DNA of 64,000 bases from NCBI GenBank assembly GCA_021821305.1, contig JAKACP010000001.1:641526-705525 (forward strand), read 5' to 3'. The DNA comes from a bacterium (GTDB lineage Bacteria > Patescibacteriota > Minisyncoccia > Moranbacterales > UBA1568). Under the pieces are notes generated by a model that saw nothing but the letters and a program-made list of their open reading frames with translations, was not told where the DNA came from and made no database searches. Shown here one piece after another: positions 20,591 through 39,642 of this stretch. Every line of letters begins with the position of its first letter. Positions within the stretch are counted from its first letter, which is position 1. A program made the translations under genes and the position numbers.

Positions 20591-21004
<414 letters not shown>

Positions 21005-35098: not shown

Positions 35099-35719
35099 TT
35101 ATTCCTTGTTCTTCCATACGGTCTTCCAGGGCCAGTGGAGTTTCCGTCCGCCCTTCGCTCCGGCCTCCCTGAAAACCCGATCCGCCTCCGCATACAGTTC
35201 GTCGAGCCCGGCGTTGTTCTCGATCAGGAAGTCGGCCCCGTCGAACAGCTTGCGTATCTCCAGCTCCGACTCGAGTTCGGAGTCGCGGAGAAATTCCTCA
35301 TACGTCTTGGTGCTGTCGTCCACGTTCTGCTTGCGTTCGGTGAGACGGGTATGCCGCTTCTTCTGATCCGCGCTGATGTAGAGGAGCCGGAACCCTGGAA
35401 GCGATTCGATACCCGCCACGTCCGACCGGCGCCGCACCCCGTCGATGACGATGAACTCCCGGGAATCGCGCTCGATCTCCTCGACGATCGCCTTGGCGAA
35501 TACGTCCTCCCCGAACGTCTTCCGGATCATGAGCGAGGCTTCGGCGAGATTCTTCCGGCTTTCCGGAATGTGCAGGCGATGCAGGATATCGCGGAGCACG
35601 TCCGAGAACCGGTACATCCCTGCGCCGTATTTCTTCTGATAGTAGCGGGCGATCGTGTCTTTCCCCGACGCTACTTCTCCCGCGATACCGAGAATGACTT
35701 TTTTTCCTTTCTGTTCCAT
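35099..35719 (-). CDS. P-loop nucleoside/nucleotide kinase family protein (dephospho-CoA-kinase/uridine-kinase-like)
   Basis: Walker A ILGIAGEVASGKDT; about 206 aa from ATG 35719 (MEQKGKK...). Exact specificity not resolved. Confidence 0.5.
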   Translation of the reverse strand: MEQKGKKVILGIAGEVASGKDTIARYYQKKYGAGMYRFSDVLRDILHRLHIPESRKNLAEASLMIRKTFGEDVFAKAIVEEIERDSREFIVIDGVRRRSDVAGIESLPGFRLLYISADQKKRHTRLTERKQNVDDSTKTYEEFLRDSELESELEIRKLFDGADFLIENNAGLDELYAEADRVFREAGAKGGRKLHWPWKTVWKNKE

Positions 35720-35822
35720 GGAGGTCGTTGTTGCGCGATTTATTCCGGGTACTCCCCGATTATACCACGAGTCCCGAGCCGCCTCAAAAGAAAAGCCCCG
35801 GACTTTCCGGGGCACCGTACGG

Positions 35823-36521
35823 CTACTGCAGGTTGACCCGGATGCCGGGACCCATGGTCGCCGCGAGCACGACCGATTTCACGAATTTCCCCTTCACGCC
35901 TTCGGGTTTCGACTTCTGCACCGTGTCGAAGAAGGTGTTGGCGTTCTCAAGGAGCGCCGCGGTATCGAACGAGAGCCGACCGATCACCTGATGGACGTTC
36001 CCGCCGTCATCGTTCTTGAAGCTGGCCTTCTTTCCCTTCGAAAGCATCTCCGTCGTCTCGGCGATCTTGGCCGTGACGGTCTCGTTCTTGGGGCTCGGCA
36101 TGAGACCCTTGGGACCGAGGATCTTGGCGACGGTCGCGAGCTTGGGCATCATGTCGGGCGTCGCGAGGAGGATATCGAACGCGGAACCGGGGATGATCTT
36201 CCCTTCCTTGATCTGGGCGATCAGATCCTCTCCGCCGACGAGCACGGCGCCCGCCGCTTCGGCCTCCTTTTCCTTGGCCTTGTCGGAGGTCACGACCGCG
36301 ACTTTCTTCATGCGGCCGGTCCCGTGCGGCAGGACGACGGTGGCGCGCACCTGCTGGTCGTTCTTCTTGGGCTCGATGTTGAGCTTGATATGCGCCTCGA
36401 CCGACTCATCGAATTTCGCGGACGCGTTGCCCTTGATCATCGCTATCGCTTCGGACAGCTCATACTCCTTCGTCATGTCGATTTTTTCCGCGATCGCGCG
36501 GTACTTCTTGCCGTGTTTCAT
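35823..36521 (-). CDS. rplA: 50S ribosomal protein L1
   Basis: MKHGKKYRAIAEKIDMTKEYELSEAIAMIK...VVLPHGTGR...ILGPKGLMPSPK. Confidence 0.9.
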   Translation of the reverse strand: MKHGKKYRAIAEKIDMTKEYELSEAIAMIKGNASAKFDESVEAHIKLNIEPKKNDQQVRATVVLPHGTGRMKKVAVVTSDKAKEKEAEAAGAVLVGGEDLIAQIKEGKIIPGSAFDILLATPDMMPKLATVAKILGPKGLMPSPKNETVTAKIAETTEMLSKGKKASFKNDDGGNVHQVIGRLSFDTAALLENANTFFDTVQKSKPEGVKGKFVKSVVLAATMGPGIRVNLQ

Positions 36522-36581
36522 ACGTTTGTCGTGGTACAGACGCCTTCGACTGCGCTCAGGCTCCCACAAATATTATGATGA

Positions 36582-36932
36582 TTATCTCTCTTCCAAAAGG
36601 AGACTGTTTTTCAGCTCTTCCAACTTTTCGATTTCTTCCTGGATAAGCTCCGAGGTGCCGACTTCCTTGGCGAGCTTGTTCTCGAGAAACCATTCATACC
36701 GATTTTTCAGCTGGTCGATTTCCCGCTCAAGCTGTTCGAATGCCTTGGAATAATCCTGCTCATCGATGGCATCGAGGACCTCATGAAGCCTGATCATCGA
36801 TTCTTCGTCGTATACGGTATTCTCTTCTTCCCCCTCCAAAGCCGTTTCAAAGTGCTTTTTCACGTCACTCCATACTTTTGCCTGTTCCTCGTCCGGCGTG
36901 ATTTCCGGGGCTTGGAACGATTCGAATGACAT
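36582..36932 (-). CDS. hypothetical highly acidic helical protein (116 aa) inserted between rplK and rplA
   Basis: ATG start; MSFESFQAPEITPDEEQAKVW...EEIEKLEELKNSLLLEER; about 30% D+E; no recognisable family. Confidence 0.45.
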   Translation of the reverse strand: MSFESFQAPEITPDEEQAKVWSDVKKHFETALEGEEENTVYDEESMIRLHEVLDAIDEQDYSKAFEQLEREIDQLKNRYEWFLENKLAKEVGTSELIQEEIEKLEELKNSLLLEER

Positions 36933-36962
36933 AGGTTCGTGTTTTCGGATGTTACCGCGAGG

Positions 36963-37388
36963 CTAGCCCTCCACCTTTATCCCCATCGAGCGAGCAGTGC
37001 CGGCGACGATCTTGGCTCCCGCCTCGATGTCGTTGGCGTTGAGATCCTCGAGCTTCTGCTCGGCGATCTTGCGCACCTGCTCCATGGTGACTTTCCCGAC
37101 CTTGTCCTTGAGCGGGTTCGCGGCGCCCTTGGCCACACCGGCCGCCTTCTTGAGGAGTTCCGCCGCCGGAGGGGTCTTGAGCACGAACGTGAACGTCCGG
37201 TCCTCGTAGACGGTGATTTCCGCCGGGATGACGTCGCCCATGTGATCCTTGGTCGCCTCGTTGAACTGCTGGCAGAATCCCTGGATATTGAGACCGTGCT
37301 GGCCGAGAGCGGGACCGACCGGCGGGGCCGGATTGGCCTTGCCGCCGACGATCTGCAGCTTGATGATTGCCTTGATTGCTTTTGCCAT
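36963..37388 (-). CDS. rplK: 50S ribosomal protein L11
   Basis: [43 protein letters not shown]; ATG at 37388. Confidence 0.9.
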
Positions 37389-37430
37389 AATCTTGATTTG
37401 CAATAATTTATCCGTCCGACGGAAGTCCGA

Positions 37431-37976
37431 TTACATTTTTCGTACCTGGAGAAAATCCAGCTCTACCGGCGTTTCGCGTCCGAAGAGGGATACGAGCACC
37501 TTGAGCTTGCCTTTCTCCTCGTCCACTTCCTCCACTTTCCCGTCGAAGTTCTTGAACGGTCCGTCGATGACCTGTACCGCTTCGCCCACCTTCACGTCCA
37601 CCTTGTATTTCGGTTCGGCGACGCCCATGCGCTTCTTGAGCCCCTCGATCTCCTTGGGGTCGACCGGAGTCGGCGTCGTGCCGAGACCGATGAAGCCGGT
37701 CACGTTCGGCGTATTGCGGACGACGTACCACGAGGCGTCGGTGACGATCATGTCGACGAGGACGTAGCCCGGATAGATGCGCTCCTCGACGACGACGCGC
37801 TTGCCGGCCTTGATCTTGATCTTCTTCTCCTTGGGAACGAGCACGTCGAAGATATAGTCCTGCATGTCCATCGACTCGATGCGCTGCTTGAGATTGCGGG
37901 ACACGTTGTCCTCGTATCCGGAGTACGTGTGGAGCACGTACCAGGCGCGTCCGTGATGCTGTGTCTGCTTCGCCAT
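37431..37976 (-). CDS. nusG: transcription termination/antitermination factor NusG
   Basis: [17 protein letters not shown] domain; C-terminal KOW ([45 protein letters not shown]). Confidence 0.9.
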
Positions 37977-38007
37977 AAGAAAAAAGGTGATGGTTGAGAA
38001 CCGGTTA

Positions 38008-38193
38008 TTATCGGAAAAGGAATCGTTCCGCGAGCAGGCTGAACACGTAGTCGAGACTTCCGAGAAATACCGCGGTCGCGGCCGAAATCCCGAGAACGAT
38101 CATCGTGTTCCGGAGCATCTGCTCCCTCGTCGGCCAGCTCACTTTCATGAGTTCGGCCTTCGCCTCCTTCAAAAACTGGATCGCTTGGTTCAT
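38008..38193 (-). CDS. secE: preprotein translocase subunit SecE
   Basis: 61 aa; [42 protein letters not shown]; immediately upstream of nusG. Confidence 0.8.
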
Positions 38194-38316
38194 ATTCCGC
38201 CCTTTTAAAAAAAGCCTTTCAGGGGCTTTTCAGATAGAGAATACCAGAAGTGGCCCGGGCTGTCAATCGCCGTGCGACCGGAGCGGGAATGGTGGCACGC
38301 GCCCGGCCGATACCGT

Positions 38317-38844
38317 TCAGAAGAGCTCCAATTCGTCGAAAAAACTCTTGTATCCGGCCAAAATGGAATCGGCTTCCTCGCGGGAAAGCGCGAAACTCGG
38401 GTCCCGGATGATGCGGTTGCGTATGTCATGCCCCGCGCGCAGCCGCTCGAGGGAGACGATCTGCCCCGGCCGCACCGCCTCGAGCCGCTCTTTCATGTTC
38501 GATCCGTCGTATCCGATACCGCCGAGCATCTCCTCGGCGATGACATCGGCCTCGAGTACGGCCACCTTGTATTGGGACGGGTTGCCGGTCTCGATACGGG
38601 CCATGACGGCATCCCAGCGTTTCGCGAATTTCGATGGCGTGATCATGGGGCGCCTGCTCCCGTAAATCGTCTTCTTGAGGTCCGACGGGATATCGCGGAG
38701 AAACAAGAGCAGGATGACATCGGCCAGGACGACCAGCGCGTACACGCCGAGAAAGACGGTGATCATGCCGAACAGCGCGGATGATCGCACCGATTCCCAG
38801 AGAGCCCCGATTATGACGATGAGAGAAGAGATGTCCCCTTGCAC
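38317..38844 (-). CDS. hypothetical membrane protein (about 175 aa)
   Basis: Two N-terminal TM helices and a soluble C-terminal domain. Start uncertain: GTG at 38844 or internal ATG at 38766. Confidence 0.4.
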   Translation of the reverse strand: MQGDISSLIVIIGALWESVRSSALFGMITVFLGVYALVVLADVILLLFLRDIPSDLKKTIYGSRRPMITPSKFAKRWDAVMARIETGNPSQYKVAVLEADVIAEEMLGGIGYDGSNMKERLEAVRPGQIVSLERLRAGHDIRNRIIRDPSFALSREEADSILAGYKSFFDELELF

Positions 38845-39396: not shown

Positions 39397-39642
39397 TCAA
39401 GGCGGGAGTGTTATTTCCATTCCCAGGGAGCAACACAAATCCAAAGAACAGTGTGACAATTCGATGATCCGACGGGTCTCGAGCGTCTTGATATCGACGA
39501 TGGCTATCCGGACACCTTCCTTCCATACGGCCAGCACCTTTCCGATATGCCAGAGATACTCCGGCGGGTAAAGACTACCGATCACATGAGGCACCCGGAC
39601 CAGGACGGCTCTGCCTCTCTTCAAACCCGAAAAACGATGCAT
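39397..39642 (-). CDS. hypothetical small protein (81 aa) with consensus promoter and SD
   Basis: ATG 39642 preceded by SD aaggag (7-nt spacer) and a perfect TTGACA-17-TATAAT promoter; no family. Confidence 0.45.
   Translation of the reverse strand: MHRFSGLKRGRAVLVRVPHVIGSLYPPEYLWHIGKVLAVWKEGVRIAIVDIKTLETRRIIELSHCSLDLCCSLGMEITLPP

Follow-up and report, generated by a model that had tools for sequence, protein, structure and literature searches.

The genes rplK and rplA, which encode the ribosomal proteins L11 and L1, sit side by side in bacteria with a constancy that few gene pairs reach, and their control by L1 is a classic example of autogenous regulation. Here we analyse a 64,000-nucleotide stretch (the window) of a Moranbacterales genome (assembly GCA_021821305.1, contig JAKACP010000001.1, positions 641,526 to 705,525 of the forward strand), in which an acidic open reading frame (ORF) of 116 residues lies between these two genes on the minus strand. 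The ORF is very probably a real, co-transcribed accessory gene, and it belongs to a previously undescribed and uncharacterised protein family. A literature search turned up no report of a gene in the rplK-rplA interval. The nearest precedent is prp (ysxB) between rplU (L21) and rpmA (L27) in Firmicutes, a non-ribosomal gene that serves one of its neighbours. Both are small, lineage-restricted genes placed between two adjacent ribosomal protein genes and apparently co-expressed with them. However, Prp acts as a cysteine protease on a defined substrate, the N-terminus of L27, and is conserved wherever L27 has the extension, whereas the ORF protein lacks a catalytic motif, evolves fast and has a patchy distribution among close relatives. 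A mode of action can be borrowed, by analogy, from the acidic escorts of eukaryotic ribosomal proteins. Tsr2, which serves eS26, and Acl4, a TPR protein that serves uL4, are small, acidic and helical or TPR-like, and they shield basic RNA-binding surfaces, which is what we propose the ORF protein might do. No sequence or specific fold relationship between these escorts and the ORF protein was found, and we know of no bacterial example of a dedicated acidic ribosomal-protein escort.

The regulatory RNA of the pair has also been described. The L1-binding mRNA is a stem whose internal bulge contains an unpaired A and a G-A pair (Fu et al. 2013, PMC3616713). It is found directly before rplA in Cyanobacteria, Actinobacteria and Chloroflexi and before rplK in Proteobacteria (PMC3616713). 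The window carries a putative element with the same stem, the same asymmetric internal loop with G-A, the same mimicry of helices H76-78 of 23S rRNA and a position before rplA; it differs in that a protein-coding gene lies between rplK and the element. Such an element was previously undescribed for Patescibacteria, and no Rfam model matches it (neither the gathering thresholds nor a permissive scan at E <= 10 gave a leader or riboswitch family in 35700..38300). It appears to extend a known RNA class, in a position already known for it, to Patescibacteria.

The acidic gene and its family

The initial annotation had described an ATG-initiated, very acidic ORF between rplK and rplA with spacers of 30 and 60 nucleotides (nt). 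This description is confirmed by the arrangement of the locus:

36963..37388, minus strand: rplK (ribosomal protein L11), 141 residues; Pfam PF03946 (Ribosomal_L11_N) and PF00298 (Ribosomal_L11), E about 4e-29
36933..36962, minus strand: rplK-ORF spacer, 30 nt; A-rich, without a Shine-Dalgarno-like GGAGG, with AACCU directly before the ATG
36582..36932, minus strand: acidic ORF, 116 residues, the coding part of the putative inserted cassette, new family; from the ORF translation, ATG start and TAA stop
36530..36568, minus strand: L1 operator-like RNA in the ORF-rplA spacer; from pattern match, comparative analysis, RNAalifold and covariation
35823..36521, minus strand: rplA (ribosomal protein L1), 232 residues; Pfam PF00687 (Ribosomal_L1), E 3e-51

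The distances are exact, with 30 nt from the rplK stop to the ORF ATG and 60 nt from the ORF stop to the rplA ATG. The first spacer measures 16-36 nt in the other ORF-bearing loci, and its A-rich stretch and the AACCU ahead of the ATG are common to the clade of the window.

A search of 5.8 billion proteins returned four relatives of the ORF product at 50-67% identity. A profile search of 1.84 billion cluster representatives (clusters at 50% identity) returned about 20 clusters with 106-140 residues, and a second profile search gave further members, one of them attributed by NCBI to a Patescibacteria group bacterium. The family is observed only in Patescibacteria, mostly in Candidatus Moranbacteria. 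A synteny comparison of the junction, which had been proposed as a check, places the ORF in the same slot in seven other lineages: intact orthologues of 112-118 residues with 28-67% identity lie between rplK and rplA in L001, L005, L006, L013 and L019 and in two distant members, L016 and L017, where identity to the window ORF is no more than 28-29%. For the closer relatives this holds in every lineage whose contig extends far enough. Four elements are conserved in an alignment of 23 members: MSFE..E..PD.E in the N-terminal tail, V..YF in helix 1, D(Y/F)..A.EYLE.EI spanning helices 2 and 3, and L.DSL.L.EK at the C-terminus. The polar residues with the highest conservation belong to the disordered N-terminal tail and to the end of the final helix. 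The ratio of nonsynonymous to synonymous substitution rates (dN/dS) is 0.04-0.24 in most pairwise comparisons. The ORF is conserved as a protein but is very fast-evolving.

A spurious ORF within an enlarged L1 leader had been considered from the start, to be recognised by a lack of conserved relatives and of a coding signature. Some features agree with it, as the ORF has no family annotation and its G+C content (0.48 for the region) and third-position G+C content (GC3, 0.61 against 0.77-0.87) are lower than those of its neighbours. However, the frame is intact and its termini are conserved in every lineage examined, the substitutions follow a coding pattern, homologues exist elsewhere in other genomes, and the L1 leader proper is an RNA of 39 nt in its own right, downstream of the ORF. 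We reject the spurious reading, because the ORF is conserved in relatives with a coding signature; its probability is negligible.

The surrounding signals are consistent with the expression proposed for the ORF. Further features of the unit are:

38238..38266, minus strand: sigma-70-like promoter match upstream of secE, TTGACA-17-TATTCT with TG extension; consensus match only
38008..38193, minus strand: secE, first gene of the unit; ORF list, Pfam SecE on orthologues
37431..37976, minus strand: nusG, upstream in the predicted same transcription unit; ORF list, Pfam NusG/KOW on orthologues of identical length
35795..35813, minus strand: strong intrinsic terminator with an 8-bp stem, 7 G-C pairs and a T-run; consensus match, 10 nt past the rplA stop

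No terminator-like site was found on the coding strand between rplK, the ORF and rplA. Because of the promoter-like site before secE, the terminator after rplA and this uninterrupted interval, secE-nusG-rplK-ORF-rplA is very probably one transcription unit, in which the ORF would be co-transcribed with translation genes. The co-expression with the translation machinery that the initial annotation deduced from the operon position is thus plausible. Downstream of rplA, the terminator is followed by an AAA_17 kinase-like gene and a dUTPase.

The ORF product contains 34 aspartate and glutamate residues among its 116 residues (29%) and 13 lysine and arginine residues, which gives a net charge of -21 and an isoelectric point of 4.27. 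Net charge lies between -15 and -23 across all orthologues. The protein had been expected to be all-helical, and the AlphaFold2 model, the check suggested for it, agrees: helices alone are predicted, at residues 15-33, 43-57, 61-83, 86-91 and 93-115. With 5 sequences the model has a predicted local distance difference test score (pLDDT) of 79.5 and a predicted template modelling score (pTM) of 0.73. The same helices are obtained with 23 sequences at lower confidence (pLDDT 73, pTM 0.52). The predicted fold is a generic four-helix bundle, and fold searches with the model found nothing beyond generic four-helix bundles. Scans of Pfam, NCBIfam, PHROGs and PADLOC with the ORF and all 23 family members gave nothing significant (in PADLOC, only scattered single-member matches at E > 0.003), and the family profile had no significant match among PDB sequences. 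The hairpin of the second and third helices is TPR-like and locally resembles TPR_12-type repeats as well as a designed binder with a TPR-like fold. This binder and a TPR_12 repeat protein are the only weak matches outside the family, and no TPR family in Pfam was matched at E <= 0.1 by any of the 23 members.

Two known protein classes were compared with the ORF protein. Structures of Avd, also called '23S rRNA intervening sequence protein' (PDB 2rld, 4dwl, 8ub7), score no better than hundreds of unrelated bundles, including de novo designs, and the ORF has no Pfam match to Avd (PF05635). Avd proteins are basic RNA/DNA binders, in contrast to the strongly negative ORF protein. No Pfam L12 match was found in the ORF either. 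A canonical rplL (L7/L12), 53% identical to E. coli L12, is present at 20657..20956 on the minus strand of the same window, which rules out the ORF as an L12 substitute. To be noted, rplL is about 15 kb away from rplKA, so that the L10-L12 genes are unlinked from L11-L1 in this genome.

A probable L1 operator before rplA

The spacer between the ORF and rplA contains UGUGGGAGCCUGAGCGCAGUCGAAGGCGUCUGUACCACG (36530..36568, minus strand), an element of 39 nt with the arms GUGGGAGCC...GUCUGUACCAC. It was found by eye and by comparative analysis. The pattern GTGGGAG-N(6-36)-ACCAC has one match in the whole window and none before rplK. In the window the RNA would form an outer helix UGUGG/CCACG with a GA bulge, a variable inner hairpin and the 3' strand GUCUGUA, and it ends 9 nt ahead of the rplA AUG. 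The same architecture is found in 11 of 11 Moranbacteria loci, with and without the ORF alike, and ends 9-13 nt before the rplA AUG; its coordinates are, for example, 5359-5395 in L001, 2952-2993 in L021, 2948-2992 in L022 and 2984-3028 in L023. The RNAalifold consensus has (U/C)GUGG/CCACG as its outer helix, together with a GA bulge on the 5' side and an inner helix; its 3' strand ends in UA. Over the 11 loci 97.7% of cells are paired, in an alignment that was trimmed by hand and is in this respect fitted towards the structure. Four pairs show compensatory double changes, such as C-G, U-A and A-U at one position. The covariation score was reached by none of 500 shuffles, and slid controls collapse.

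The L1 site of E. coli 23S rRNA (H76-78) reads GGUGGGAG...AAAUACCACC. E. coli rrlH, against which the comparison was made since the 23S gene of the window genome lies outside the window, reads GGUGGGAGGC...GAAAUACCACC, and its GUGGGAG/UACCAC arms are the same as those of the element. These comparisons make it probable that the RNA at 36530..36568 is an L1 operator that mimics the L1 site of 23S rRNA. In L019 (5368-5440) the inner hairpin is expanded to a 58-nt element with an extra long stem AAUCCGU...GCGGAUU, while the GUGGGA/UACCAC arms are kept.

The position of the element bears on how the insertion should be read. The distance from the ORF stop to the operator is 10-19 nt in all eight ORF-bearing loci, and the distance from the rplK stop to the operator is 52-108 nt in the three loci without the ORF. 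We suggest that the cassette was inserted between the rplK stop and a pre-existing operator, leaving L1 feedback on rplA intact and the ORF itself outside this control. The initial annotation assumed that L11 and L1 are co-regulated through an L1-binding mRNA site. Such a site does seem to exist, but it is not always placed before rplK (PMC3616713) and in this locus it precedes rplA. The disruption of co-regulation that was implied by the insertion is not borne out. The putative L1-binding RNA is located downstream of the ORF and directly before rplA, in ORF-bearing and ORF-free lineages, and the autoregulation of rplA by L1 would therefore be undisturbed.

The operator also bears on the start codon of rplA. 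The true start is the ATG at 36521 and not the upstream TTG at 36569, which would run through the operator and over-extend rplA. This assignment is backed by the N-terminus MKHGKKY, conserved in relatives. In several relatives (L013 894-, L016 2735-, L017 1644- and L023 3001-) the called rplA begins at a TTG or GTG that lies within the operator or upstream of it, which adds 6-16 spurious residues ahead of the conserved M(K/S/Y)(H/R)GK. L1 matches of 239-252 residues among named homologues also fit over-extended starts. A practical use of the operator motif is the correction of such start codons.

Distribution and possible exchange of the cassette

The closest named homologues of the window L1 belong to Candidatus Moranbacteria/Moraniibacteriota. 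Three Moranbacteria relatives have rplK and rplA adjacent without the ORF: L021 (GCA_018061645.1), L022 (the complete 1.2-Mb genome CP064975.1) and L023, whose L1 proteins are 78%, 67% and 71% identical to that of the window. Their rplK-rplA spacers, as called, measure 98, 158 and 81 nt, and no remnant of the ORF was detected in any of them by tblastn. In a neighbour-joining tree of NusG, L11 and L1 the ORF-bearing lineages form two clades, one of the window, L001 and L019 and the other of L006, L016 and L017, which are separated by the three ORF-free lineages. Two family members are located outside any ribosomal operon. One (P0021 in L014) adjoins a DUF1428 gene, and the other (P0012 in L024) adjoins a TPR protein together with cell-wall and repair genes. 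The window itself holds a single copy of the ORF. Its absence in close relatives, its incongruence with the flanks and the two members outside the ribosomal operon argue for an accessory rather than a core ribosomal gene.

The incongruence is seen when protein identities are compared between pairs of lineages:

window and L001: L11 100%, L1 97%, ORF 50%
window and L019: L11 93%, L1 87%, ORF 60%
window and L006: L11 82%, L1 63%, ORF 66%
L006 and L016: L11 89%, L1 78%, ORF 35%

The ranks of the ORF are inverted relative to those of the flanking genes. Between the window and L001 the DNA identity is 93-100% over rplK and rplA and 43-67% over most of the ORF, and the drop starts at the rplK stop and ends at the rplA start. 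In the same comparison the ORF has a dN of 0.40-0.58, against 0.00-0.13 in ten neighbouring genes. We lean slightly towards the view that the cassette has been laterally exchanged between lineages via recombination in the conserved flanks, which better accounts for the inverted ranks and the patchiness.

Several observations weigh against this view. The dN/dS between the window and L001 depends on the method and ranges from 0.10 to 1.0. Codons for the same amino acid differ between these two lineages in 34% of cases in the ORF; the ribosomal protein genes have 15-16%, and RecJ, RNase H and a neighbour of 175 residues have 32-39%. A simple swap of alleles between the window and L001, as the sharp fall in DNA identity at the borders of the gene would suggest, is tempered by this result, as the synonymous differences of the ORF (0.34) match those of the non-ribosomal neighbours (0.32-0.39). 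The low GC3 of the ORF is an ambiguous marker of lateral transfer, because the deficit recurs in every lineage. Taken together, the synonymous level, the GC3 and the spread of dN/dS mean that some of the incongruence could stem from episodes in which the protein evolved rapidly. In addition, other intergenic spacers are as divergent as the ORF region between the window and L001. The argument for a replacement is therefore one from rank incongruence and patchiness and not from synonymous saturation. The nusG-rplK spacer (window 37389..37430), for instance, has 42 nt in the window and an unalignable 99 nt in L001 (4456-4554), with flanking genes that are 99-100% identical in protein; the intergenic spacers of the secE-nusG-rplK-ORF-rplA operon seem to turn over very fast in general.

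Flanking repeats and target-site duplications were limited to short matches at chance level, no inverted repeats were found, and a phage origin is unsupported, as no relative of the ORF was found in IMG/VR viral contigs. Residues of L11, L1 and NusG that track the presence of the ORF were also considered. There are nine such columns in nine genomes, including G84/A86 versus K84/E86 in L11 and P50 versus A50 in L1. Other splits that do not follow clades yield 8-9 columns too, and thus the nine columns are not significant. As for the residues themselves, the ORF-bearing lineages share AAG(V/I)(A/T)K in L11 (window 37131..37139, minus strand, residues 84 and 86) and (E/N)PKK in L1 (at about residue 50). 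The three lineages without the ORF have AAK(T/I/V)EK and (N/S)AKK, and this split runs against the NusG, L11 and L1 tree. Co-transfer of the flank or co-adaptation could account for the shared residues.

Possible roles of the ORF and other small genes nearby

Our favoured reading overall, which we put forward tentatively, is that of a lineage-restricted accessory cassette in the rplK-rplA spacer of some Candidatus Moranbacteria that encodes a putative translation-linked binding protein. The cassette sits upstream of the putative operator and would lie outside L1 control, and the ORF would be translated at roughly L11-like levels. Ribosomes terminating at the ORF stop would abut the operator, which may couple translation of the ORF to initiation at rplA. 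The product would be soluble and strongly acidic, folding as a four-helix bundle whose central hairpin is TPR-like. From the topology of the model, the conserved N-terminal tail (MSFE..PD.E) and the end of the C-terminal helix (L.DSL.L.EK) would meet at one pole of the bundle. This pole and the acidic surface might bind a basic partner of translation, perhaps a ribosomal protein in its free form or else an RNA-binding surface. The protein would then be an adaptor or escort, a dispensable accessory factor and not a core ribosomal protein, and recombination inside the highly conserved genes on either side would carry its cassette from one lineage to another.

The translation-associated binding function in this scheme is possible but doubtful, because two homologues stand outside the operon and there is no co-evolution with L11 or L1. 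Further points weigh against the favoured reading. The promoter and the terminator are consensus matches and not measurements, and the proposed link to the ribosome is drawn from operon position. Two family members have unrelated neighbourhoods. Furthermore, the ORF proteins of the window and L001 share 50% identity next to L11 and L1 proteins at 100% and 97%, with no sign of co-evolution with the neighbours.

Other explanations start from the same evidence. The ORF might be a conflict-related passenger, an immunity, antitoxin-like or decoy factor that uses the strong constitutive operon as a platform for its expression and might, for instance, guard a component of translation from a toxin or phage effector. 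Small size, acidity and a helical fold are features that the ORF protein has in common with many immunity proteins and mimics. The patchy presence among close relatives, the very fast amino-acid change (dN 0.40-0.58 versus 0-0.13 in the neighbours, window against L001), the phylogeny incongruent with the flanks, the atypical GC3 and the family members in unrelated contexts would also fit. However, in 10 contexts no toxin, effector, nuclease or defence gene adjoins the ORF and the neighbours are housekeeping or unknown genes. No defence model was matched, PADLOC and PHROG gave no significant match, and viral contigs held no relative. Also, lineages whose ORFs share only about 28% identity keep the same precise slot, and orphan immunity genes do not usually behave in this way. 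We regard the passenger explanation as unlikely. Less probable still is a mobile accessory translation factor, a rapidly evolving acidic protein that Moranbacteria lineages swap through recombination in rplK and rplA. It would attach to ribosomes or to L11/L1 in free form, for example to divert or block a phage effector or a toxin directed at the ribosome, or to serve as a lineage-specific protein of the stalk region, and translation of the ORF would gate the L1 operator. The gene would then be driven by conflict and passed laterally, although it is embedded in an operon that ranks among the most conserved in bacteria.

The ORF could instead act mainly in cis, with its translation opening the L1 operator or allowing re-initiation at rplA in place of the rplK-rplA coupling, and with a secondary role for the peptide. 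The short and constant distance from the ORF stop to the operator, 10-19 nt versus 52-108 nt without the ORF, speaks for such a device, as does the very fast divergence of the protein sequence. On the other hand, motifs and length are conserved over 23 members down to about 25% identity, dN/dS is below 1, homologues stand alone outside ribosomal operons, and a coupling device has no need of about 115 codons. A mainly cis-acting ORF is therefore quite improbable. The initial annotation also mentioned DNA mimics, anti-sigma-type adaptors and ribosome-associated factors; the family scans and fold searches gave no direct support for any of these three classes. A mimic of the Ocr or ArdA type would present an acidic surface in imitation of DNA or RNA and thereby capture an enzyme that binds either, such as a restriction enzyme or RNA polymerase. 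With 116 residues, 34 of them acidic, and an all-helical model, the ORF protein resembles phage T7 Ocr in length, acidic content and helical character. The searches linked the ORF protein to no known mimic, by structure or by sequence, and to no phage, and we consider mimicry very improbable.

The locus illustrates how a foreign, fast-evolving gene can be tolerated inside a highly conserved pair with the feedback loop unbroken. The insertion would be tolerated because the predicted L1 operator sits directly before rplA in the Moranbacteria lineage. Ribosomes of the Candidate Phyla Radiation (CPR) and their L1-stalk region are unusual, and the uL1/H78/Der region is evolutionarily labile (PMC12641178). 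The locus adds an uncharacterised protein family and a predicted, so far unannotated L1 operator to the biology of this group. A protein that binds the translation machinery would be a rare accessory partner of the ribosome, laterally exchanged and fast-evolving. A protein that does not would be an ordinary lineage-specific hypothetical gene in an unusual place.

Two more small genes are found near the operon. Directly upstream of secE, a hypothetical protein of 175 residues with a hydrophobic N-terminal half and no Pfam family is encoded at 38317..38844 on the minus strand. It is kept at 175-179 residues in L001, L016, L019, L021 and L023, in lineages with and without the acidic ORF alike. 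Between RecJ and RNase H, an ORF of 81 residues at 39397..39642 on the minus strand has no Pfam family and a GC3 of 0.62, against about 0.8 in its neighbours, which is as atypical as that of the acidic ORF. A gene of 81-84 residues is present in L008 and L019 and is not called in L001, and this ORF may be another accessory small gene.

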